DNA of 64,000 nucleotides from Polaromonas sp. (GCA_043740415.1 JAYUCJ010000152.1:2758-66757), one strand, 5' to 3'; positions 53,712 to 64,000 are shown, numbered from the stretch's first letter. The notes: generated by a model not told the origin, from the letters alone. Translations and numbers: made by a program.

Positions 53712-55193
53712 TTGAGGATGTCAACGCAGATGTTATTTTTTCGCCCCGAAGTCATGCAGTCACAAGCCAGCCAATGGCTAGGCGTTGTACGCTTGCACAG
53801 ACCCTTGTCGTTCGGCTTGATCACTGCAACAGCCATCGGCGTTGCACTTTTGTGCATCACATTTGCAACGTGGGGCGAAGTCAACCGTAAATCACGCATT
53901 TCTGGCTTGCTCGTTTCTTCGTTAGGCAGCCTGAATATAGCCGCACCGCTGGCCGGTGTGTTGGTCGAAAGCCGGATTTCTGAAGGCCAAACCGTACAAG
54001 CGGGTGACGTGCTGTTCGTACTCAACACCGAGCGCCAAAGCACGGCGGGCGACACCAACGCCCTGACTCTGATACACATCGAAGCCCGCAAGCAAACCCT
54101 GAACACCGAGCGCGGCCTGCGCCAGCTGCAAACCAGTCAACGCAGCCAAGTGCTAGAAGACCGCATTCGCACGCTGAATGCCGAGCTATTGCGCCTAGAC
54201 GAAGAGCAAAACCTGCTAGAAAACCGCATCACCCTGTCCAAGAAGACACTTGCACGCAGCCAAAAATTAGCTTCCGAGGGCTTTTTGTCTGAAGCTCAAG
54301 TACAAACCAACCAAGAAGAACTCATAGACCTCAACAGCCGCCAACAAGCCCAAGCCCGCAGCAAACTCAGCACCCAGCGCGACCTACGCACACTCACTGG
54401 CGAAGCCGAAGGTCTAGCCACCCAACTCAAAGCAGATTTAAACCAGCTAGCGCGCAATGTGTCGCAGCTCAACCAAGAAGCCACAGAAACCACCGCCCGC
54501 AAAAGCACCCTCATCACCGCGCCCTACGCTGGCACCATCACCGCCTTTAACCTGCAAAACGGCCAAGCCGTGCAGGCGGGGCAAACCTTGGCGACGTTGG
54601 TGCGTACAGAAACCACATCTCCGATGCTCACCACAGAAAAAGTCAGGTTGAAAATCTCCGGCTACAAGATGACGACGTTACTTTCGACGCCAAAAAATAC
54701 CGTTCGCCCTGAGCCTAACATTCCATCCGTTCGCCCTGAGCCTGTCGAAGGGTTCACCGCCAAAGCAGAGCCACAAGCCCCGCAATCCCTCCAAGCCCAC
54801 CTCTACGCCCCCAGCCGCACCGCCGGCTTCCTCAAACCCGGCCAGTCCGTCTACATGCGCTACGCCGCCTACCCCTACCAAAAGTTCGGCCTACAAACCG
54901 GCCACATCACCGCCATATCCGCCACCCCCTTCTCCGCCAGCGAGCTACCCCCCAACATCGCCCAGCAGCTCATCGCGCAATCTGGCAGCAACGAAGCCCT
55001 CTTTCGCATCAACGTGCGGCTAGACCAGCAAACGATTACCAGCTACGGCGAGCCGCTGCAACTCAAAGCAGGGCTAACGCTAGAGGCCGATGTGCTGCAA
55101 GAACGCAGAAAGATATGGGAATGGGTGCTAGAGCCGCTGCTTGCGGCTAAGGCGCAATTGAAGGTTTTGAACTCGAATCCAAATAAAAATTAA
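53712..55193 (+). CDS. HlyD/CvaA-family membrane-fusion (adaptor) protein for peptide export
   Basis: FRPEVMQSQASQWLGVVRL + TM + lipoyl-like hairpin (ISEGQTVQAGDVLFVL) + long coiled coil + beta-barrel (APYAGTITAFNL..GQAVQAGQTLATLV). Carries an in-frame PAL element. Confidence 0.85.
   Translation: MRMSTQMLFFRPEVMQSQASQWLGVVRLHRPLSFGLITATAIGVALLCITFATWGEVNRKSRISGLLVSSLGSLNIAAPLAGVLVESRISEGQTVQAGDVLFVLNTERQSTAGDTNALTLIHIEARKQTLNTERGLRQLQTSQRSQVLEDRIRTLNAELLRLDEEQNLLENRITLSKKTLARSQKLASEGFLSEAQVQTNQEELIDLNSRQQAQARSKLSTQRDLRTLTGEAEGLATQLKADLNQLARNVSQLNQEATETTARKSTLITAPYAGTITAFNLQNGQAVQAGQTLATLVRTETTSPMLTTEKVRLKISGYKMTTLLSTPKNTVRPEPNIPSVRPEPVEGFTAKAEPQAPQSLQAHLYAPSRTAGFLKPGQSVYMRYAAYPYQKFGLQTGHITAISATPFSASELPPNIAQQLIAQSGSNEALFRINVRLDQQTITSYGEPLQLKAGLTLEADVLQERRKIWEWVLEPLLAAKAQLKVLNSNPNKN
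54700..54755 (+). repeat. PAL-family element (tandem left arms) in frame within hlyD
   Basis: ccgttcgccctgagcctaacattccatccgttcgccctgagcctgtcgaagggttc. Read as ...TVRPEPNIPSVRPEPVEGF... Confidence 0.8.
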
Positions 55194-55200
55194 TAAAAGC

Positions 55201-55698
55201 ATGAAGTATTTTCAAAAAATCCGCACCATCGTATTTTCAACTGAATTGCCTTTATGGAAATATTGCTTTCTGACATTTTGGATCTTTATCAGCGTATCGG
55301 TTATAGCCAATATTTTTATAAAAACATTAGCAGTATTTTTAACTATAAATTATGGACCTGAAGAAATTAAAACTAATTTATCGGTGATTGAATCAGTTGT
55401 TGTTAGCATAATCGTACCGTTTATAGAAACACTCCTTCTTGCGGTGTTTTTAATATTATTTAAAATAATATTAAAAAATAATATGTTTATAGCAATCATC
55501 ATTGCAATAGTTGCCGGATTGACACATTCAAAACAAGATTGGACACATTTTTTTATATACGCGGCTATGTTTTATTTATTTGCACTATTTTATTTAACAA
55601 GGTCAAAAATTTCTTTTGCCAATGGATTTATAGCTGCTTTTGTTCCACATCTGTTAAACAATTCAATGATTGCTCTATTTGCATATTATGATATTTAA
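55201..55698 (+). CDS. CPBP/Abi-like intramembrane protein (putative immunity), paralogue 1
   Basis: 165 aa, about 5 TM. PFIETLLLA (degenerate EExxxR), GLTHS, and FVPHLLNN (HxxxN). Ends ...YYDI like paralogue 2. 7-nt gap after the hlyD stop. Confidence 0.65.
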   Translation: MKYFQKIRTIVFSTELPLWKYCFLTFWIFISVSVIANIFIKTLAVFLTINYGPEEIKTNLSVIESVVVSIIVPFIETLLLAVFLILFKIILKNNMFIAIIIAIVAGLTHSKQDWTHFFIYAAMFYLFALFYLTRSKISFANGFIAAFVPHLLNNSMIALFAYYDI

Positions 55699-55773
55699 AT
55701 CTAAATTATAAATTCTGTTTTTACGCATTTGGCAGTAAATTTTTTATAAATGCGGTATTTAGAAAGAGTAGTT

Positions 55774-56031
55774 ATGAAAGAATTATCGATTGAAGATTTA
55801 GCAGAAGTCGCCGGTGGAGGAGCATTGACCACAGCTGGGAAATGGATGCTAAACCAACTTGCTGGCTGGGGATTTACGGAAGCAGTTGTCGAAGGCGTTA
55901 AATATGTAATGGACAATGAGGGCGGCTGGTTTACTCCTGGCGCTGCCAACGACGGTGGCGGTTCGTCTCCGTACGTTTGCGATGCTAACGGCTACTGCTA
56001 TACCAATAATCAGTATAGCTGCTCTGCATAA
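55774..56031 (+). CDS. Double-glycine-leader peptide 1 (class II microcin/bacteriocin-like precursor)
   Basis: 85 aa. The 15-aa leader MKELSIEDLAEVAGG is spaced like the ColV leader MRTLTLNELDSVSGG. About 70-aa Gly/Trp-rich core ending PYVCDANGYCYTNNQYSCSA. RBS-like aaagag upstream. Confidence 0.75.
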   Translation: MKELSIEDLAEVAGGGALTTAGKWMLNQLAGWGFTEAVVEGVKYVMDNEGGWFTPGAANDGGGSSPYVCDANGYCYTNNQYSCSA

Positions 56032-56051
56032 TAAATTTGCTTAAATAAAAA

Positions 56052-56075
56052 TCCAAAGATGTGCACATCTTTGGA
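56052..56075 (+). terminator. Perfect 12-bp-arm hairpin after the peptide 1 gene (no T-tract)
   Basis: tccaaagatgtg/cacatctttgga, 20 nt after the stop codon. Confidence 0.35.
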
Positions 56076-56099
56076 TAATACAACTTTAATATTACCAAT

Positions 56100-56327
56100 A
56101 TGCATAGAATGATTAGTGGAGTACTGTCGTTTATTAGAAGCAGTCAAACATCACCGTACAATACTTCTAATGCTATACAAACGGCAGTCTTACAGGCATA
56201 CGCAGCGCGCGTGAAACTAAGCAATGATACACATGGCGATACCGCACTACACATCAATCAACATATTCACAAACCAGCTCTCTCTGAAAACAGTGACTGC
56301 AAGCGCTTATGGCAGCAATATAGTTGA
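56100..56327 (+). CDS. Hypothetical 75-aa ORF
   Basis: Open frame in an AT-rich region. No motif, no TM, no obvious RBS. Confidence 0.25.
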   Translation: MHRMISGVLSFIRSSQTSPYNTSNAIQTAVLQAYAARVKLSNDTHGDTALHINQHIHKPALSENSDCKRLWQQYS

Positions 56328-56382
56328 AAAACCTTGTGAGATAATATTGAATGAGCTTTTTAAGCATGCAAATATGTCCATG

Positions 56383-56426
56383 GCTAACATATTATTTGCC
56401 TGAGCAGCTATTTTAATAATAGCAAT
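56383..56426 (+). repeat. Degenerate R45 copy
   Basis: gctaacatattatttgcctgagcagctattttaataatagcaat. Confidence 0.55.
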
Positions 56427-56465
56427 ATACTAAAACAAGTACACATTAAATATTCTAAAATTACT

Positions 56466-57386
56466 ATGCGAATTTTAAATTTTTTATACATTACTTCTGC
56501 ATTAACGGTATTGGTTGGTTGTGTATCACCCATACAAACACCAGAAGAGGTTAGTAGAAATAATGACTTATTAGCTACTCAGATATTGCAATCAAAAAGC
56601 AAGAGCAGTCAAACTATACAAAATAAATCTCTCGATAATACTCCAACCATACAAAGGGTATCAGGTATTTACTTTGGATTAGCACTCGATGGTGTATCGC
56701 CAGCTTTTGAGGGTGATATTAAGCGAGTACAAAATTTATTTTTTGACGAAATTGCTAAGGGTCCTAGCTTGCTACTCAGCAATTCCGAAACAAATGAACA
56801 AATATACCCACGTGCGGATTTCAGAACCATCCCAGAGGCAGCAAAGGCTGTAGGGAATTACCGTGTTGAGCCCGATATCGGGTTAACAACACCGGGCCTA
56901 AAAGTGGTAGTTGTTTCATCACACGGCAGAGAAAAGCACTTGCGACTACGTGTAGGAAAAAATCGGATCCAAGGCGAAGTAAGTGATGCTTACCTCTTGA
57001 AACTACTTGCTGATATTGATGGCTCAAGCAAAACTCCTACGCTGTTGATTATTTCAGCCTGCCACTCGGGCTCTTTTATTCCACTTCTTGCTGCGCCCAA
57101 TAGAATTATCATGACGGCAGCAGCCAGTGATAAATTATCATTTGGCTGTGGCACAGATTCTAAAAATACGGCATTTACTGAACACTTACTAGATCAAAAC
57201 ATTGACACGAAATTATCATTGCACAATCTTTTTGATAGTGCTTTAAAACGTATTTCCGATTTTGAAATAAAAATGAAAATCGCAACCTCATCACCACAAA
57301 TATCTGTGGGTGCAAATATGCAGAGATTGTATGAAGCACGCATTGAAGAGTGGGATAAAATTTTAACCAAAGAAAGAAAAGATTAA
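56466..57386 (+). CDS. Lipoprotein, clan-CD cysteine peptidase (C13/legumain-like family)
   Basis: Lipobox LTVLVGC. His-Gly ... Ala-Cys dyad context VVVVSSHG...LLIISACHSGSFIPLL, followed by IMTAAASDKLSFGC as in bacterial C13-family proteins. Confidence 0.65.
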   Translation: MRILNFLYITSALTVLVGCVSPIQTPEEVSRNNDLLATQILQSKSKSSQTIQNKSLDNTPTIQRVSGIYFGLALDGVSPAFEGDIKRVQNLFFDEIAKGPSLLLSNSETNEQIYPRADFRTIPEAAKAVGNYRVEPDIGLTTPGLKVVVVSSHGREKHLRLRVGKNRIQGEVSDAYLLKLLADIDGSSKTPTLLIISACHSGSFIPLLAAPNRIIMTAAASDKLSFGCGTDSKNTAFTEHLLDQNIDTKLSLHNLFDSALKRISDFEIKMKIATSSPQISVGANMQRLYEARIEEWDKILTKERKD

Positions 57387-57396
57387 ATACAAATAG

Positions 57397-57645
57397 TTAA
57401 TTCCAAATTACTGTCCTATAAATGGCGGCAATACTCAATACCGAAATATACCAACCCCTGTCATTGCATCAATAGCGCAAGTATCCGCAAGAGCCCGAAA
57501 CGTGATGCCTAGTAATGATGCTAACGGTGATACCGCGCCATACTGCAACCAATACTCTCACAAAGCAGTTGCGTCTAAAAACGGTGACCGCAACGGTTTA
57601 GGTCAGCAATACAGTTGGGGAACTTGGTGGGATGATACGAATTGA
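57397..57645 (+). pseudogene. Start-less paralogue of GG-leader peptide 2
   Basis: The frame opens right after a TAG: LIPNYCPINGG-NTQYRNIPTPVIASIAQVSARARNVMPSNDANGDTAPYCNQYSHKAVASKNGDRNGLGQQYSWGTWWDDTN. The core is homologous to 58371-58631, but there is no ATG/GTG/TTG or RBS before the GG. Confidence 0.6.
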
Positions 57646-57668
57646 GTTTTTATGTGCATAAATGTGCC

Positions 57669-57714
57669 ACTAGCCGGCGTATTTATTGCCTAGACAGCTA
57701 TATTATTTATAGCA
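57669..57714 (+). repeat. R45 repeat, 24 nt after the peptide-2 paralogue
   Basis: actagccggcgtatttattgcctagacagctatattatttatagca. Confidence 0.85.
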
Positions 57715-57742
57715 AAAATTTCATCTAATATCAAATAAAAAC

Positions 57743-58237
57743 ATGCAGAGTATCGCAAAAATTTACGGTTTTTTAATTTCTAACAAAATTTCATTCCCAA
57801 AATATATCGGCATTGTATTTTTAATAGAATTATTGTCAGCCATATTTCTTGCTTTACTTGTTTTTGTTTTCATTGACATCTTTGATTTAAATTACGCCGC
57901 ATTTCCTGAGCACGATTTATCTTGGGGAACATTTTGGAAGGGAGTCGTTTTTGCACCTACTCTTGAAACCTATTTATTGATTTTAACTTTGCATATTTTG
58001 CGAAGTTTCGACATTCAAGGTTTAAAACTTGCAAGTATTGCTGCCATATTCTGGGGCGCATTACATGGGGTTCAAAGTTGGCCTTGGTTTTTTGCACCTG
58101 CATGGATATTTTTCATCTATTCAACGGCTTACGAAACATGGCGTTTGACATCTTTTAAGAAAGCTTATTTTGCCGCTGCTATTCCGCATGCTCTGAATAA
58201 TTTGGTAGCCCTGTTCGCTAATAGCTACGACATCTAA
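57743..58237 (+). CDS. CPBP/Abi-like intramembrane protein (putative immunity), paralogue 2
   Basis: 164 aa. PTLETYLLI, GALHGV, IPHALNN. Ends ...SYDI. The stop TAA overlaps an ATG (TAATG) that begins a relic of the ABC gene. Confidence 0.65.
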   Translation: MQSIAKIYGFLISNKISFPKYIGIVFLIELLSAIFLALLVFVFIDIFDLNYAAFPEHDLSWGTFWKGVVFAPTLETYLLILTLHILRSFDIQGLKLASIAAIFWGALHGVQSWPWFFAPAWIFFIYSTAYETWRLTSFKKAYFAAAIPHALNNLVALFANSYDI

Positions 58238-58313
58238 TGCGCGTCATCATTCAATCCGAAGCCAGCGAATGCGCGCTGGCTAGTTTGGCTATGGTTTGCA
58301 GTGCGCATGGGCT
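58237..58313 (+). pseudogene. 77-nt duplicate of the 5' end of the C39-ABC exporter gene
   Basis: atgcgcgtcatcattcaatccgaagccagcgaatgcgcgctggctagtttggctatggtttgcagtgcgcatgggct is identical to 59649-59725 except for one base. Homology stops abruptly afterwards. Confidence 0.85.
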
Positions 58314-58370
58314 ATCAGTCAATAAGAGAGTTTTTAAGAAAATAATCTTTATTAATCAAAGGAGGATTTT

Positions 58371-58631
58371 ATGGAGCAACTTAATAAATCAACATTGTCA
58401 TTAATATTGGGGGGCAATAACGTCCCGGGAAAAGTGCCGGCAGCTGTACTCGCATCAATGACGCAAGTATCCAGTAGAGTAAGTGATACATTACGGATTA
58501 TGAATACGCATGACGATGCCGCGCCATACTGCAATCAATATTTACACGTGGCTATTGCTCCAAAAAACGGTGACCGCAACGCCTTGGGGCAGCAATATAG
58601 CTGGGGCACTTGGTGGGATGATACACATTGA
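58371..58631 (+). CDS. Double-glycine-leader peptide 2 (class II microcin/bacteriocin-like precursor)
   Basis: 86 aa. Strong RBS aaaggagg 7 nt upstream. The 15-aa leader MEQLNKSTLSLILGG has hydrophobic residues at -4, -7 and -12. Core ends GQQYSWGTWWDDTH. Confidence 0.75.
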   Translation: MEQLNKSTLSLILGGNNVPGKVPAAVLASMTQVSSRVSDTLRIMNTHDDAAPYCNQYLHVAIAPKNGDRNALGQQYSWGTWWDDTH

Positions 58632-58654
58632 GTTTTTAGAGGCAAGAATATACC

Positions 58655-58700
58655 GTTAGCCGACGTATTTATTGCCTAATATGCTATGAACTTTAATTAT
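58655..58700 (+). repeat. R45 repeat (3' half diverged), 24 nt after peptide 2
   Basis: gttagccgacgtatttattgcctaatatgctatgaactttaattat. Confidence 0.65.
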
Positions 58701-58797
58701 TTTATTTTGTGATGTCACATATTTTTCCACTTGCATTAGCCGCGTAACGATGGTAAATTACTGTCATTAAACACAGTAGTCAACCAAGGTAATTCAC

Positions 58798-59649
58798 ATG
58801 AAAATTCTTCCAACCGATTTCGATGGTCAATCTATCCGCCGCGTGTATGACGAGGACACTGAAATGTGGTGGTTTTCTGTGGTGGACGTGGTGCAGGTGC
58901 TGACGCAGCAGGCTGATGACTTGACGGCTCGCAAGTACTGGAATCAGCTGAAACGCAGGCTTGAGAATGAAGGCAGCCAACTGGTGACAGACTGTCACCA
59001 GTTGAAAATGACAGCGGCAGATGGCAAACAACGCTTAACAGATGCTGCAAGCGCCGAAACTTTGCTGCGTCTCGTTCAATCCGTCCCCAGCCCCAAAGCT
59101 GAACCCATCAAACTGTGGCTAGCTAAAACTGGCTATGAGCGTATGCAAGAAATGGCAGACCCTGCGCTGTCTTTGAATCGTGCCCGCGAAACGTGGGAGC
59201 AACATGGGCGTAGCGACAAATGGATTCAGCAACGGATGACGGGACAGGAAACCCGCAACAAATTGACTGACTATTGGCGTGAGCACGATGTCAAACCTGG
59301 TCAAGAGTTTGCTATTTTGACCAATATCATCCACCAAGCTTGGACAGGCGTAAGCGTCAAAGAGCACAAAACTGCTAAGAATCTGACTAGCCATAACCTG
59401 CGCGACCACATGACTGAAGCAGAGCTTATTTTTACAGCTCTGGCTGAGCTATCTACGCGGCAGATTGCAGAGAACCGCCATGCAACGGGTTTACCCGAAA
59501 ATGCCACGGCCGCCAAAGTGGGTGGCAGTATTGCACGCCAAGCACGTCAGCAGCTAGAAAGCGAAACGAGCAAATCAGTGGTGACTAGCAGCAACTACTT
59601 GCCGCCAAAGAATACTAAGCTTCTCAAGCCCCAAAAACCGTCACCTTAA
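58798..59649 (+). CDS. Bro-N domain protein (DinD / phage antirepressor-like)
   Basis: FDGQSIRRVYDEDTEMWWFSVVDVVQVLT is a Bro-N signature. 283 aa. The stop overlaps the ABC start (TAATG). Confidence 0.7.
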   Translation: MKILPTDFDGQSIRRVYDEDTEMWWFSVVDVVQVLTQQADDLTARKYWNQLKRRLENEGSQLVTDCHQLKMTAADGKQRLTDAASAETLLRLVQSVPSPKAEPIKLWLAKTGYERMQEMADPALSLNRARETWEQHGRSDKWIQQRMTGQETRNKLTDYWREHDVKPGQEFAILTNIIHQAWTGVSVKEHKTAKNLTSHNLRDHMTEAELIFTALAELSTRQIAENRHATGLPENATAAKVGGSIARQARQQLESETSKSVVTSSNYLPPKNTKLLKPQKPSP

Positions 59650-61763
59650 TGCGCATCATCATTCAATCCGAAGCCAGCGAATGCGCGCTGGCTAGTTTGG
59701 CTATGGTTTGCAGTGCGCATGGGCTGCAGGTGGATTTGGCGGATTTGCGGCGGCGGTTTGTGGTGTCTATCAAGGGCGCTACCATGCAGCAGCTGGTGCA
59801 GCATGCGGATGGGCTGAACTTTAGCTCACGCCCGCTGCGGTTGGAGCTGGATGAGCTTAGCCAGCTTCAACGGCCCTGCATTTTGCACTGGGGGCTGAAC
59901 CATTTTGTGGTGTTGGTCAAGGTGCGTAAGAACCACATCGTGATTTACGACCCTGCGGTGGGTGAGCGGCGGGTGGTGATGGAAGATGTGTCGCGGCACT
60001 TCACGGGTATTGCGCTGGAATTAACGCCGAATGCCAGTTTTGAGCCTAGCGACCAGCGACAGCGGGTGTCGCTTGCGGCGCTGACTGGTAAGGTGCTAGG
60101 GCTGAAGCGTTCGATGTTTCAGATATTTGCATTGGCCATGGTGTTGCAGCTTTTTGCCATTGCCGCACCGCTGTTGAACCAGCTGGTGGTGGACGATGCG
60201 ATTGCGACGTATGACAAAGATTTACTCTCGGTGCTGATTGTTGGTTTTGCCTTGCTGATGTTGATTCAGACTTTGCTGGGCTTGGCGCGTAGCTGGATGG
60301 TGATGGCGCTGAGCATGTCGCTTAGCCTGCAGTGGACGAGCAATGTGTTTAGCCACCTGCTGAAGCTGCCGATTGAGTATTTTGAAAAACGGCATTTGGG
60401 CGATGTGGTGTCGCGCTTTGGGTCTGTCAATACGATTCAAAAAACGCTGACAAGCAGCTTGATTGAAGCGGTGCTGGACGGGTTGATGAGCGTTGCCGCA
60501 CTGGGCATGATGCTGCTATATTCGCCGCTTTTGGCCGCCGTGGTAGTGGGCGCGGTAGTTATCTATGCGCTTTTACGCTGGGCGATGTACAAACCTTTTC
60601 GTGATGCGAGTGCGGAGCGTTTAGTGGTAGCTGCTAAAGAGAATACGCATTTTCTAGAGTCGCTTCGCGCCATCACGCCGCTGAAACTCTTTGGGCGTGA
60701 AAACGAGCGCCGCGCACGCTGGCAAAACCTGCTGATTGATGTACAAAACCGCGACATCAAAACCGCCAAAATGGGCATCGCGTTCAGCACGGCAAACACG
60801 TTTATTTCTGGCATTGAAAACTTGGTGGTACTTTGGTTGGGGGCAGGTTTGGCAATGCAAAGCTCGCCACAAGGACAAAGCAGCTTCACCATTGGTATGC
60901 TGTTTGCCTTCATCAGCTACAAAGGGCAGTTTTCTAGCCGCATGGCGACCTTGATTAACTACTTTGTTGAAATCAAAATGCTGGGCTTGCATGCAGAGCG
61001 TTTGGCAGATATTGCGCTGACTGAGCCTGAAAAAGACGCCGTACCTGACAACACGTTGCAGCATCTTGAACCCAAAATTGAACTCAAAAACGTAAGTTTT
61101 CGCTACGGGGAAGGTGAGCCTTGGCTACTGAAAGAAACCAACGTGGTGCTCAACGCCGGGGAAAGCGTGGCGATTGTGGGGGTGAGTGGCTGCGGTAAGA
61201 CGACTTTGTTGAAGCTTATTTTGGGTTTGCAGCAAGTGGTGGAAGGGGAAATTTTGTACGGTGGCATCCCCGTCAAACAACTGGGATTACAAAATTACCG
61301 CAAATTGATTGGTACGGTGATGCAAGAAGATGTTTTACTGGCTGGCAGCATTGCAGAAAATATCAGCTTTTTTGATGTTCACTTTGACATGGAGCGGGTG
61401 CAAACATGTGGTCAACTCGCGGCAGTGCACGACGACATTGCGCGTATGCCTATGGGCTACCAAACTTTGGTGGGGGATATGGGTTCTGCTTTGTCGGGCG
61501 GGCAAAAACAACGTGTTTTGCTAGCCCGCGCTTTGTACAAACAGCCGAAAGTGCTGGCTTTGGATGAAGCGACCAGCCATTTAGACATCACCAATGAGAG
61601 ACGAGTGACACAAACTTTGACGCAAATGAGCTTGACCCGCATCATTGTGGCGCACAGGCCCGAGACGATTGCTGCGGCGCAGCGGGTGATTGCTTTAGAG
61701 AATGGAAAAATAATTGAGTTGCGACCGGCAGCAGCGTTTGAGAGCTTACAAGAAGCGGCATAA
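59649..61763 (+). CDS. Peptidase-C39-domain ABC transporter (PCAT, CvaB-like bacteriocin/microcin exporter)
   Basis: N-terminal C39 domain QSEASECALASLAMVCSAHG (catalytic Cys) ...HFVVL. 6-TM domain. Walker A GVSGCGKTT, signature LSGGQKQR, Walker B VLALDEATSHLD. Confidence 0.9.
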   Translation: MRIIIQSEASECALASLAMVCSAHGLQVDLADLRRRFVVSIKGATMQQLVQHADGLNFSSRPLRLELDELSQLQRPCILHWGLNHFVVLVKVRKNHIVIYDPAVGERRVVMEDVSRHFTGIALELTPNASFEPSDQRQRVSLAALTGKVLGLKRSMFQIFALAMVLQLFAIAAPLLNQLVVDDAIATYDKDLLSVLIVGFALLMLIQTLLGLARSWMVMALSMSLSLQWTSNVFSHLLKLPIEYFEKRHLGDVVSRFGSVNTIQKTLTSSLIEAVLDGLMSVAALGMMLLYSPLLAAVVVGAVVIYALLRWAMYKPFRDASAERLVVAAKENTHFLESLRAITPLKLFGRENERRARWQNLLIDVQNRDIKTAKMGIAFSTANTFISGIENLVVLWLGAGLAMQSSPQGQSSFTIGMLFAFISYKGQFSSRMATLINYFVEIKMLGLHAERLADIALTEPEKDAVPDNTLQHLEPKIELKNVSFRYGEGEPWLLKETNVVLNAGESVAIVGVSGCGKTTLLKLILGLQQVVEGEILYGGIPVKQLGLQNYRKLIGTVMQEDVLLAGSIAENISFFDVHFDMERVQTCGQLAAVHDDIARMPMGYQTLVGDMGSALSGGQKQRVLLARALYKQPKVLALDEATSHLDITNERRVTQTLTQMSLTRIIVAHRPETIAAAQRVIALENGKIIELRPAAAFESLQEAA

Positions 61764-61767
61764 AAAA

Positions 61768-62147
61768 TGTGAAGCTCGCCGATACGCCGGATTTTGTGCG
61801 GCACAACCCGAAAGCTGCGCCGTGACCGTCATTCATCTTGGCCTTGGGTCACCCCAAGGCTCGGTGCTACCTACCCGCCATCTCTCTTAGCGAACCGCCA
61901 AGTGAGACGATTCGGCGAACCTAGTCACCTCTGGATGGCCTATTTGGTATTGCTGCGCGTAGAGATTGCCCGTTTCACCCGCTATGAGTTTCCCCATAGC
62001 GACTCGTCTCTGTTGCTCTGATCCTCACCTTATATCTTTCGACTTTCAGTGGGCAGCCGTTAGCTGCTACGCTGTCCTATGCAGTCCGGACGTTCCTCCA
62101 GTGCTTGGTTTCCCAAATTGCACCAGCGACGGCCTAGCGAGCTTCAC
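61768..62147 (-). ncRNA. rnpB: RNase P RNA, bacterial type A
   Basis: The reverse complement reads GAAGCTCGCTAGG...GGAGGAACGTCCGGACTGCATAGGACAG...CAGAGCAACAGAGAC...GGTGAAACGG...CAAATAGGCC...AGATGAATGACGGTCAC...ACAAAATCCGGCGTATCGGCGAGCTTCAC. This matches the P1/P4 and universally conserved blocks of E. coli M1 RNA. Confidence 0.9.
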
Positions 62148-62153
62148 AGAGGC

Positions 62154-62159
62154 ATTATC
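62154..62159 (-). promoter_or_regulatory. Candidate -10 box (GATAAT with upstream TG) for rnpB
   Basis: Minus strand: cgTGgGATAATgcctctgtGAAGC, about 8 nt upstream of the predicted RNA 5' end. No good -35 at 17-nt spacing. Confidence 0.35.
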
Positions 62160-62206
62160 CCACGCCAAATCCAGTCCATCGTAACTCGTCTTCAGATATC
62201 CACTGC

Positions 62207-62239
62207 TTAGCCATTACTTAGCCATTACTTAGCCATTAC
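62207..62239. repeat. 3 x 11-bp perfect tandem repeat (ttagccattac)
   Basis: ttagccattac repeated three times. Overlaps the stop codon of the dehydrogenase gene. Confidence 0.9.
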
Positions 62240-63537
62240 TTTCCACTCACTCGCCAAATCCTGTTGCCAACATCATCCGCAACCAACAGCGCACCTTGTT
62301 TGTCGATAGCAACACCGACGGGGCGGCCGAGCGCCTTGCCATCGTCACTCAAGAATCCTGTTAAAACGTCAACGGGTAACCCTTTGGGTTTGCCATTTTC
62401 AAAAGGTACAAATATCACTTTATAACCGCTGTGCGGTCGTCTATTCCAGGAACCATGTTGACCAATAAACATGCCCTGCGAGAAGATTGCAGGCAGTTTG
62501 CTACCGGTTGAAAACGCCAGCCCTAGCGATGCAGTATGTGACCCTAAGGCATAGTCCGGTACCAGTGCTTCTGCCACCATCGCAGGCTGTTGCGGTTGAA
62601 CCCTCTGATCAACATGTTGGCCGAAATAACTATACGGCCAACCATAAAAACCACCACTTATGACCGATGTCAGGTAGTCCGGCACCAAATCACTGCCGAG
62701 TTCATCACGTTCATTCACCACCGTCCATAAAGCGCCACTTGTGGGCTCCCATGCCATGCCGTTCGGGTTGCGCAAGCCGGATGCAAACAGTCGATGTGCG
62801 CCGGATTTGATATCGACCTCCCAAATGGCGGCACGCTCAAACTCCGCCTCCATGCCACTTTCGGCGATATTGCTGTTTGAACCTACGGTCACATACAGCT
62901 TGCTGGCATCAGTGCTGGCGATGATGTTTTTGGTCCAATGGTGGTTTATGGGGCCTGCAGGCAAATCCAATAATTTTCTGCCTGCCACTTTGATCTGCGT
63001 ATCACCCGTGGTGTAAGGGAAGCGCAACACCGCATCGGTGTTGGCAACATAAAGTTCGTTGCCAACCAAAGCGATGCCGAAGGGTGAATTCAAGCCGCTC
63101 AAAAACACGGATCGAACATCAGCCACGCCATCGCCATTGGTGTCGCGCAACAAGGTGATGCGGTTCGGGCTTGGAACAGCAGCCCCTGCCACAGACATCA
63201 CCAGCCCGATGACCCAAGACTTGATACCCTTGTTGGCTTGTGCTTTTGGGGGTGCATTAGATTCAGCCACAAGGACATCACCATTTGGCAACACATACAG
63301 CCAACGCGGATGTTCGAGATCAGCTGCAAATGCACCAACGCTGGTGCCTGCTGCCGTGAGTGGCTGAAGACCTGTATTCCAACCTTTGGCAGGTGCGATG
63401 TTCACCGTTGGAATTAGCGACTTACTCGGAGGCGGCAAAGCTGGTTGCGGGCCATAACCCGCTTCAATCGGCAGCTTAGCCAAATCACTGCAAGCGGCAA
63501 GCAAAAATAGCAAGATTCCCATAACGAAGTTCAACAT
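62236..63537 (-). CDS. PQQ-dependent sugar (sorbosone/glucose) dehydrogenase-family protein
   Basis: Signal/lipobox LLFLLAAC. Beta-propeller motifs [12 protein letters not shown]...NERDELG.DLVPDY...GGFYGWPY. Confidence 0.75.
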
Positions 63538-63577
63538 CGATACACCTTGCCGCCATCAGCTCGACGCATGCAAAACC

Positions 63578-63736
63578 TCATAGTCGCCCCATCACCAGCA
63601 GTACCACGACGATGAGCACGATCAGCCCAATACCACCACTGGGGCCATAGCCCCAACTCTTGCTGTGGGGCCAGCTAGGCAGTGCGCCAACCAGTATCAA
63701 GATCAAAACAATCAACAGTATGGTTCCTAAGCTCAT
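63578..63736 (-). CDS. DUF3309-family small membrane protein
   Basis: 52-aa ORF not in the supplied track: MSLGTILLIVLILILVGALPSWPHSKSWGYGPSGGIGLIVLIVVVLLVMGRL. RBS-like aggagaaaatc upstream. Confidence 0.7.
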   Translation of the reverse strand: MSLGTILLIVLILILVGALPSWPHSKSWGYGPSGGIGLIVLIVVVLLVMGRL

Positions 63737-63777
63737 GATTTTCTCCTAAGGGTTGAGGCGTGTTTACTTATGCAAAT

Positions 63778-64000
63778 TTATTTTGGTGGTGGTGTTTCGG
63801 CTGGCACAACGATAACTGCGGTTCCGCCGCCTGCACCAGTTTTACCTGTATCGCCTTGGCTGCCCGTAGCACCAGTAGCACCAGTATTGCCTGTGCTTCC
63901 CGTGTTGCCACCTGCCCCTTGGCCACCGGTTGCACCCTGTGGACCAGCTGGTCCAGGCACAGCGACTGGCGTCGCAGGAACAATGACTGTGGGTCTGTCG
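63778..64000 (-). CDS. Collagen-like Gly-X-Y repeat protein (partial; continues beyond the window)
   Basis: ...PGPAGPQGATGGQGAGGNTGSTGNTGATGATGSQGDTGKTGAGG, then TAVIVVPAETPPPK stop. The frame stays open to the window edge. Confidence 0.5.
   Translation of the reverse strand, partial: DRPTVIVPATPVAVPGPAGPQGATGGQGAGGNTGSTGNTGATGATGSQGDTGKTGAGGGTAVIVVPAETPPPK

Follow-up and report, generated by a model that had tools for sequence, protein, structure and literature searches.

The gene at positions 56466-57386 of the analysed stretch of Polaromonas sp. DNA (64,000 nucleotides, hereafter the window) encodes a clan-CD, family C13 cysteine peptidase of the legumain fold, which carries a lipoprotein signal and is embedded in a class-II-microcin-like PCAT/HlyD export locus. 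Its relatives recur beside closely related exporters, and comparison of these loci shows that the gene is a facultative member of an exchangeable cargo/immunity cassette and not a component of the conserved export machinery. The C13 family itself is already known; what is new, with respect to the literature searched, is a legumain-fold lipoprotein protease that is recurrently built into PCAT/HlyD bacteriocin cassettes. All the features discussed below lie on the plus strand of the window.

The open reading frame starts with ATG, ends with TAA and codes for 306 aa, and it is the sole C13-like gene of the window, as no second one was found elsewhere in it. All the strings quoted by the original prediction were located in this frame: LTVLVGC (aa 13-19, with the Cys19 codon tgt at 56520-56522), VVVVSSHG (aa 147-154, with the His153 codon cac at 56922-56924), LLIISACHSGSFIP (aa 193-206, with the Cys199 codon tgc at 57060-57062) and TAAASDKLSFGC (aa 217-228, ending in SFGC228). 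Direct reading of the sequence gave a signal peptide with the lipobox L-V-G-C19 (MRILNFLYITSALTVLVGC, 56466-56522), in which MRILNFLYITSALTVLVG-C19 satisfies the pattern [LVI][ASTVI][GAS]-C. The Cys19 column contains Cys in most of the aligned homologues, and the lipoprotein signal that had been proposed is thus upheld. The residue at +2 after Cys19 is Val, and because there is no Asp at +2, which would be the inner-membrane retention signal according to the E. coli rule, the protein is predicted to reside on the outer membrane and to face the periplasm. The signal and lipobox (aa 1-19) are followed by a long tether helix (aa 26-52) and a caspase-like catalytic domain (aa ~65-305). A dN/dS value of 0.19, calculated against an 82%-identical relative (L369), indicates that the gene is under purifying selection.

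Assignment to family C13 is solid. The Pfam model PF01650 (Peptidase_C13) matched the protein with 38 bits (E 1.7e-9) against a gathering cut-off of 22.8 bits, the match spanning aa 148-267 and profile positions 113-238 of 258, and the same domain is present in all 62 homologues returned by the protein search. NCBIfam models gave only matches far below threshold and PADLOC gave none for this protein. A PDB search with the single sequence returned no match and legumain was reached by profile only, a profile of the homologue alignment matching it with an E value of 2.7e-8. In this profile alignment, the His-Gly and Ala-Cys motifs fall on the legumain catalytic residues H148 and C189, ISACHSGS falls on the legumain IEACESGS, and SFGC falls on SYAC. 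The AlphaFold2 model (pLDDT 91.1, pTM 0.89) found legumain 4n6o as its best Foldseek match in the PDB (E 6.3e-11, probability 1.0), and the best 50 PDB matches were all legumains/AEPs, PALs, caspases (caspase-7) or GPI8, with TM scores of 0.49-0.57. Alignment of 47 homologues showed that H153, G154, S197, A198, C199, S225, G227, C228 and E267 are invariant. Among them, the catalytic pairs His153-Gly154 (codons at 56922-56927) and Ala198-Cys199 (codons at 57057-57062) align with those of legumain. The catalytic His, Gly and Cys are kept in 18 of the 18 context-annotated loci, and Ala198 is replaced by Asp in one divergent paralogue. The original prediction had called the protein a C13/legumain-like peptidase with a His/Cys dyad, and it withstood comparison with the family HMM, which places it inside clan CD, of its predicted structure with the PDB, where legumains come first and caspases, PALs and GPI8 follow, and with the homologues, in which both dyad residues are constant. 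By these residues, the peptidase is apparently catalytically competent.

The resemblance to legumain (MEROPS C13) comprises the HMM family, the caspase-like fold, and the His-Gly and Ala-Cys motifs followed by Ser-x-x-Cys. Legumain, however, is not a lipoprotein of bacteria; the present protein stops at aa 306, about 40 residues past the catalytic region, lacks the C-terminal LSAM prodomain, is just ~14% identical to legumain in the structural alignment at the TM scores given above, and would act in a near-neutral periplasm, whereas legumain acts in the acidic lysosome or vacuole. Legumain binds Asn at P1 in a zwitterionic S1 pocket formed by R44, H45, E187 and D231. In the sequence profile alignment, to which this S1 comparison is confined and which covers E187 and D231 of the four, E187 corresponds to the invariant S197, the neighboring E190 corresponds to H200, and the D231 column is variable among the C13 homologues (E, Q, K or R). 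Asn specificity as in legumain is therefore unsupported, since E187 and D231 are not kept, and the P1 specificity is probably a different one. Legumain-like here refers to fold and chemistry, not to specificity.

The locus opens with an HlyD-family membrane-fusion (periplasmic adaptor) gene (53712-55193; Pfam HlyD_3, HlyD_D23 and Biotin_lipoyl_2), for which the TIGR01843 and TIGR03794 matches fall below their cut-offs and which, when aligned with the adaptors of L001 and L198, contains ~50 extra aa (aa ~299-355) inserted in frame. It is followed by a CPBP/Abi-like (Rce1-like) polytopic membrane protein (CPBP-like 1, 55201-55698), a putative immunity protein for peptide 1. Its Rce1-like score of 18.8 bits covers the whole profile and lies just under the cut-off of 22.4, the CPBP-like homologues of other loci score 14.9-21.3 bits, and the gene adjoins pep1-type peptides in L083 and L286 as well. 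Next come the gene of the 85-aa precursor of peptide 1 (pep1, 55774-56031), recognized from its sequence and a ribosome-binding site, a decayed WWDD-family pseudogene directly 5' of the C13 gene (56211-56345), the C13 gene itself, and a copy of the WWDD peptide gene whose start codon is gone (pep2, 57397-57645). A second CPBP-like membrane protein (CPBP-like 2, 57743-58237), putatively conferring immunity to the WWDD peptide, is 100% identical to the product of the gene that lies 3' of the WWDD peptide gene in L283-L285, which are loci without C13, and its homologue in L282 scores 21.3 bits as Rce1-like. Next is the 5' stump of a second PCAT gene (MRVIIQSEASECALASLAMVCSAHGL…, 58237-58404), and it is followed by an intact 86-aa WWDD-family precursor (pep3, 58371-58631), a Bro-N-domain protein (58798-59649) and the PCAT gene (59649-61763), whose product contains C39, ABC_membrane and ABC_tran domains. 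The Bro-N protein, which matches the PADLOC candidate PDC-S13 (E 6.7e-119), is inserted directly 5' of PCAT, is missing from that site in L282, and is outside the bacteriocin machinery. All members of the PCAT clade keep the C39 residues Q6, C12, H85 and D101. Thus both the bacteriocin-locus setting that had been claimed, with adaptor, C39-ABC exporter and the double-glycine peptide genes at 55774-56031 and 58371-58631, and the claim that leader removal is already taken care of by the C39 domain, agree with what we found.

The interior of the locus differs in composition from its two ends, with a GC content of 28-44% over 55200-58800 against 52-57% in HlyD and PCAT. Over 57508-58313, the window matches the pep-CAAX2-PCAT junction of L283 at 96% identity, two metagenome contigs (L081 and L082) break at the PCAT stump, and the stump itself is a recombination scar between cassettes. 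A scan of promoters and terminators gave matches at chance expectation.

The peptides that travel with the protease fall into two types in the window. The precursor of pep1 has the leader MKELSIEDLAEVAGG, ending in …AGG, a core with three Cys and the C-terminus ...YSCSA; its match to TIGR01847 is below the cut-off, and pep1-type peptides share the C-terminal YSC followed by 2-3 residues. The homologues of pep1 (P0080/L286, L083 and L287) are each accompanied by a C13 gene, so that a pep1-type peptide and a C13 gene occur together in four of four loci (the window, L286, L083 and L287/288). The gene order is also the same in all four loci of the window's subclade (at least 53% identity): membrane protein, pep1-type peptide, WWDD peptide (intact or decayed) and C13. 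In the window, the WWDD member of this series is the pseudogene at 56211-56345, which is 49% identical to pep2 by tblastn and contains internal stop codons, and the same decayed copy is present in L286. Translation of pep2 gives a double-glycine leader ending in …LIPNYCPINGG followed by NTQY…WWDDTN, and pep2 is probably a remnant; in L369, its equivalent is an intact WWDD gene that overlaps the C13 stop. The intact pep3 has the leader MEQLNKSTLSLILGG and a single Cys. In the WWDD family, PKNGDRN…SWGxWWDD is invariant, as is the first Gly of the leader, with the second Gly nearly so, and the invariant WWDD is followed by exactly two variable residues in 17 of 17 sequences. No conserved second cleavage motif was found after the GG site in the peptides of the locus, nor was a second cleavage motif or a C-terminus common to all cargo types found among those of the window, L083, L001 and L002. 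By sequence, the peptides of the locus resemble class II peptides that carry no modification. The subclade of C13 proteins at ~40% identity has a different cargo, consisting of 141-191-aa proteins with GG leaders, one of them weakly PLA2-like. In this subclade, a conserved gene for a secreted protein of ~190 aa overlaps the C13 start; this partner has no homologue in the window and no Pfam match.

Relatives of the protease (38-58% identity) are encoded directly 5' of PCAT in L083/L084 (a Rep3/ParA plasmid-like contig), L001, L002, L166/167/170, L172 and L173, next to PCATs that are 73-94% identical to that of the window. In the window, the C13 gene lies upstream of PCAT at a distance of 2.3 kb with inserted cassettes between them, and in L165 the distance is 6 kb. 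Members of the clade (at least 38% identity) are found beside PCAT in eight independent loci, and in a neighbor-joining tree the PCAT-linked C13 sequences form one clade apart from the stand-alone members of the family. The clade is small: an exhaustive search of 1.84 billion representatives gave 2037 clusters for the family at E≤1e-3 but no more than five (at 50% identity) at E≤1e-30, and a metagenome scan added just four further close loci. The wider family is mostly stand-alone and located in housekeeping neighborhoods. Intact copies of the gene without a nearby PCAT exist in L168/169, L171 and L004, nested inside the PCAT-linked clade, and tandem paralogues exist in L165 and L004. With the exception of the divergent paralogue L004a, these orphan and paralogous copies keep the conserved residues that were examined.

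As for the co-occurrence of C13 and PCAT genes suggested by the original prediction, the association recurs in the eight loci but is not obligatory. An HMM search found a C13 gene in none of 160 other related PCAT loci, including L198-L201, whose PCATs are 69-73% identical to that of the window. L283-L285 carry a complete set of HlyD, CPBP-like protein, WWDD peptide, CPBP-like 2 and PCAT (about 96% identical) without C13. With L198-L201 and L283-L285 lacking the gene, C13 as a constant partner of its PCAT clade is ruled out. A need for C13 in making WWDD peptides is likewise ruled out, because the complete HlyD-peptide-PCAT loci L283-L285 encode these peptides without it.

Two comparisons bear on the exchange of cassettes. 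Between the window and L083, the PCATs are 94% identical, but C13 (58%), pep1 (62%) and CPBP-like 1 (CAAX1; 51%) are much less so, and it is because these three diverged together while PCAT stayed at 94% identity that we assign the C13 gene to a fast-evolving, exchangeable cassette. L282 represents the window's own chromosomal site, being 99.2% identical over 59647-64000, and has other cassettes upstream of PCAT. The locus is an example of cassette swapping in freshwater Comamonadaceae, with HlyD and PCAT as conserved anchors on either side.

Regarding the role of the protease, the original prediction had offered a second maturation step, degradation of re-entering toxin and activation of peptide 1 as possibilities, and the locus comparisons narrow this choice. 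The predicted placement of the protein offers a starting point. HlyD-PCAT type I systems export their substrates from the cytoplasm straight to the outside. Since this route bypasses the periplasm, a periplasm-facing lipoprotein would meet incoming rather than outgoing peptide. We tentatively favor a periplasm-facing protease that shields the producer from bacteriocin peptides, i.e., an immunity-type role, as a real possibility that still falls short of being probable. Sec would export the protein, Cys19 would be lipidated, and a helix plus linker, together about 40 residues long, would anchor it to the outer membrane on the periplasmic side. The enzyme would then cut bacteriocin peptides that reach the producer's periplasm, whether its own or those of related neighbors, with pep1-type and WWDD-type peptides as candidate substrates. 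It would complement the CPBP-like membrane immunity proteins and have no part in export or leader removal. We favor protection because orphan and paralogous C13 copies persist without exporter or cargo, as orphan immunity genes would be expected to do and in better agreement with protection than with maturation, because the protease is still under purifying selection although the WWDD gene on its 5' side has degenerated, as seen in the window and in L286, and because other complete loci encode WWDD peptides in the absence of C13. Several points speak against protection. A CPBP-like immunity gene is plausible for each intact peptide, and the protease would be a redundant second layer. Surface exposure would be compatible with the sequence too, the placement being derived from the E. 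coli +2 rule only, and the orphan copies could equally mean a cargo-independent housekeeping role. Moreover, because the ~40% relatives have a different cargo and a partner protein that is absent from the window, there is no obvious common substrate. Finally, proteases of bacteriocin/RiPP loci are mostly maturation enzymes (PMC10885120).

A second-step maturation or activation is a close rival of the protective role, one that we consider rather doubtful: after C39 cleavage and export, the pep1-type peptide, or the pair of pep1-type and WWDD peptides, would be trimmed or activated by the C13 enzyme, and for this the enzyme would have to be surface exposed or the peptide would have to pass through the periplasm. 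It is well established that a PCAT can be joined by a second dedicated protease, and CylA, LicP and CerP (S8 serine proteases) and MfuP (a metalloprotease) are second-step proteases of PCAT-exported lanthipeptides (PMC10885120). By analogy, the C13 enzyme might act downstream of its PCAT, as CylA does after CylB and LicP after LicT. The likeness lies in a secreted protease that is encoded beside a PCAT which has already removed the double-glycine leader. But the four known enzymes belong to other catalytic classes and folds, and they serve Gram-positive or myxobacterial lanthipeptides with a defined hexapeptide to remove, whereas the peptides of this locus seem unmodified and reveal no second site, and one of their two families can do without the protease. 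Linkage to the cargo is what best suits maturation. In its own clade, the C13 gene always follows a pep1-type and a WWDD peptide (4 loci), pep1-type peptides were never seen without a C13 gene (4 loci of 3-4 lineages, a very small sample), and the divergence of C13 tracks the cargo, not the exporter. Maturation is harder to reconcile with WWDD peptides being encoded by complete loci without C13, with peptides of unmodified class II appearance that show no conserved second motif after the GG site, with an export route that skips the periplasm, where the lipoprotein would sit, and with intact orphan C13 copies that remain without PCAT or cargo.

Those same intact orphan copies within the PCAT-linked clade would also suit a general envelope-maintenance protease that has no specific action on bacteriocin peptides and is a cassette passenger or a helper in toxin tolerance, as would the large size of the wider family (2037 representative clusters) and its mostly stand-alone, housekeeping settings. 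We regard this as unlikely, since the PCAT-linked clade is small, distinct and monophyletic, its position next to PCAT is fixed in eight independent loci, the gene shares the composition and divergence rate of the cassette, and its strain-variable presence (L282) is unexpected of a housekeeping gene. The model for such a role is Abrp of A. baumannii. An A. baumannii 'peptidase C13 family protein', which from its annotation we take to be Abrp, aligns with 73% of the query at 28% identity. It differs from the protein of the window in its length of 483 aa with a long N-terminal extension, and in being encoded as a stand-alone gene in a housekeeping neighborhood with neither PCAT nor HlyD. Loss of Abrp alters envelope permeability and antibiotic susceptibility (PMC11615727). 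In the literature searched, no phenotype of a bacterial C13 protein other than that of Abrp was found.

GPI8/PIG-K and the plant PALs (butelase, VyPAL2 and OaAEP1) share family and fold with the protease and are among its closest structural matches, but they are transpeptidases, working in known partner complexes or on Asx-Xaa-Xaa tails, and no sign of ligase chemistry is seen here. It is very improbable that the enzyme cuts off a short C-terminal tail and joins the new C-terminus to an amine, giving a cyclised peptide, pep1 joined to the WWDD peptide, or a peptide attached to an envelope molecule: the two residues that follow WWDD in every sequence and the 2-3 residues that follow YSC in pep1-type peptides would suit such tails, but C-terminal conservation can be explained in many other ways, WWDD peptides are also encoded where the enzyme is missing, and the Asx-binding S1 residues of legumain are not conserved.

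Returning to protection of the producer, proteolytic or producer-encoded defense against bacteriocins is known from Abi/CPBP-type immunity proteins, the nisin resistance protease NSR and MccF. The concept is alike, namely an envelope-associated or producer-encoded peptidase that protects against a bacteriocin, but these proteins have folds unrelated to C13 and, none of them is known to belong to clan CD or to be a lipoprotein of Gram-negative bacteria. Another periplasmic cysteine protease that is functionally tied to a type I secretion substrate is LapG, which acts on the secreted adhesin LapA. LapG has a transglutaminase-like fold (C93), is controlled by LapD and c-di-GMP, and has a giant adhesin as its substrate; it thus differs from the C13 protein in fold, in regulation, and in cleaving an adhesin instead of a bacteriocin. 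Literature searches that paired C13 or legumain with microcin, bacteriocin or PCAT yielded no relevant paper; within this scope, clan-CD enzymes have not been described in any Gram-negative microcin or PCAT system, and they are absent from a 2023 review of RiPP/bacteriocin proteases (PMC10885120).

Almost none of the bacterial C13 proteins, which make up ~2000 representative clusters, has been characterised, and through the small PCAT/HlyD-linked clade this orphan family acquires a concrete set of candidate substrates that can be put to the test. A protective role would make the protease a bacteriocin immunity factor of a new kind. A maturation role would place it in a class of second-step proteases of its own, with potential as a new sequence-specific tool enzyme, and ligation, should it prove true, would make it the first ligase of the legumain type in a bacteriocin pathway of bacteria. 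The host of the locus is a freshwater Comamonadaceae bacterium close to Polaromonas and Rhodoferax, and a decarboxylase encoded near the locus is 100% identical to one in the MAG TH-Jun18-235.

The region of the window between the HlyD adaptor gene and the C39-ABC exporter (PCAT) gene, positions 55200-58800, forms a low-GC island of 28-44% GC between neighbours of 52-57% GC, a composition that fits the entire cassette block having been exchanged horizontally. Downstream of the second CPBP-like gene (putative immunity), another PCAT gene survives as a 5' stump on the forward strand at 58237-58404, and a chimeric remnant joining a PCAT 5' end to an HlyD 3' end sits between two cassettes at L198 (8179-8562), a PCAT locus without the C13 peptidase gene. 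Toxin/immunity cassettes seem to be swapped by recombination anchored in the conserved termini of the HlyD and PCAT genes. Three metagenome assemblies (L081, L082 and L085) end at the PCAT-stump repeat. The nearest complete relative of the cassette (L083, 4693-12182) is on a 13.6-kb contig that also encodes Rep3, ParA and an integrase, and thus the bacteriocin module can be plasmid-borne. Between the intact peptide gene pep3 and PCAT, a Bro-N-domain protein is encoded on the forward strand (58798-59649), its stop overlapping the PCAT start; it is a match to PDC-S13, a candidate phage-defence system in PADLOC (E 6.7e-119), and is missing, by locus comparison, from L282, which occupies the same chromosomal site.

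The WWDD double-glycine peptides form a small family: 5.8 billion proteins yield 16 clusters. In alignment A4 of this family, whose window members lie at 58371-58631 and 57397-57645, PKNGDRN…SWGxWWDD is invariant and followed by exactly two variable residues, and a single Cys is nearly invariant. Every pep1-type peptide has three Cys, and these odd counts suggest, speculatively, that the two types could make up a disulfide-linked two-peptide bacteriocin. On either side of the C13 gene lies a decayed WWDD gene, that at 56211-56345 interrupted by internal stops and that at 57397-57645 without the start codon of its leader. The same decayed upstream copy is found in L286, a near relative carrying C13. 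A perfect palindrome with an 11-bp stem (ATCCAAAGATGTGCACATCTTTGGAT) occupies 56051-56076, 20 nt past the stop codon of pep1; the forward strand has no T-run there. As a hairpin behind the structural gene, it may act in mRNA stabilisation or attenuation.

In the ~40%-identity C13 clade, a conserved secreted protein of ~190 aa (C-terminus …WKFDRYD) is always encoded directly upstream of C13 and overlaps its start (L001 5241-5816, L002 9307-9933, L165 9376-10011, L166 9386-9970 and L004 9311-9901). It has no Pfam match and no counterpart in the window; it could be a partner, inhibitor or immunity protein. The cargo proteins of L001 (2845-3324 and 4800-5225) and L002 (8721-9296) are 141-191 aa long, with double-glycine leaders and Gly/Asp/Trp repeats, and one of them gave a weak, below-threshold match to prokaryotic phospholipase A2 (E 0.005).

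Compared with the HlyD proteins of L001 and L198, that of the window carries an in-frame insertion of ~50 aa (…VRPEPNIPSVRPEPVEGFTAK…; ~54606-54776, forward strand), present in shorter form in L283, another PCAT locus without C13. Its antisense frame reads FDRLRANG, and the insertion may be a small repeat element that entered without disrupting the reading frame.
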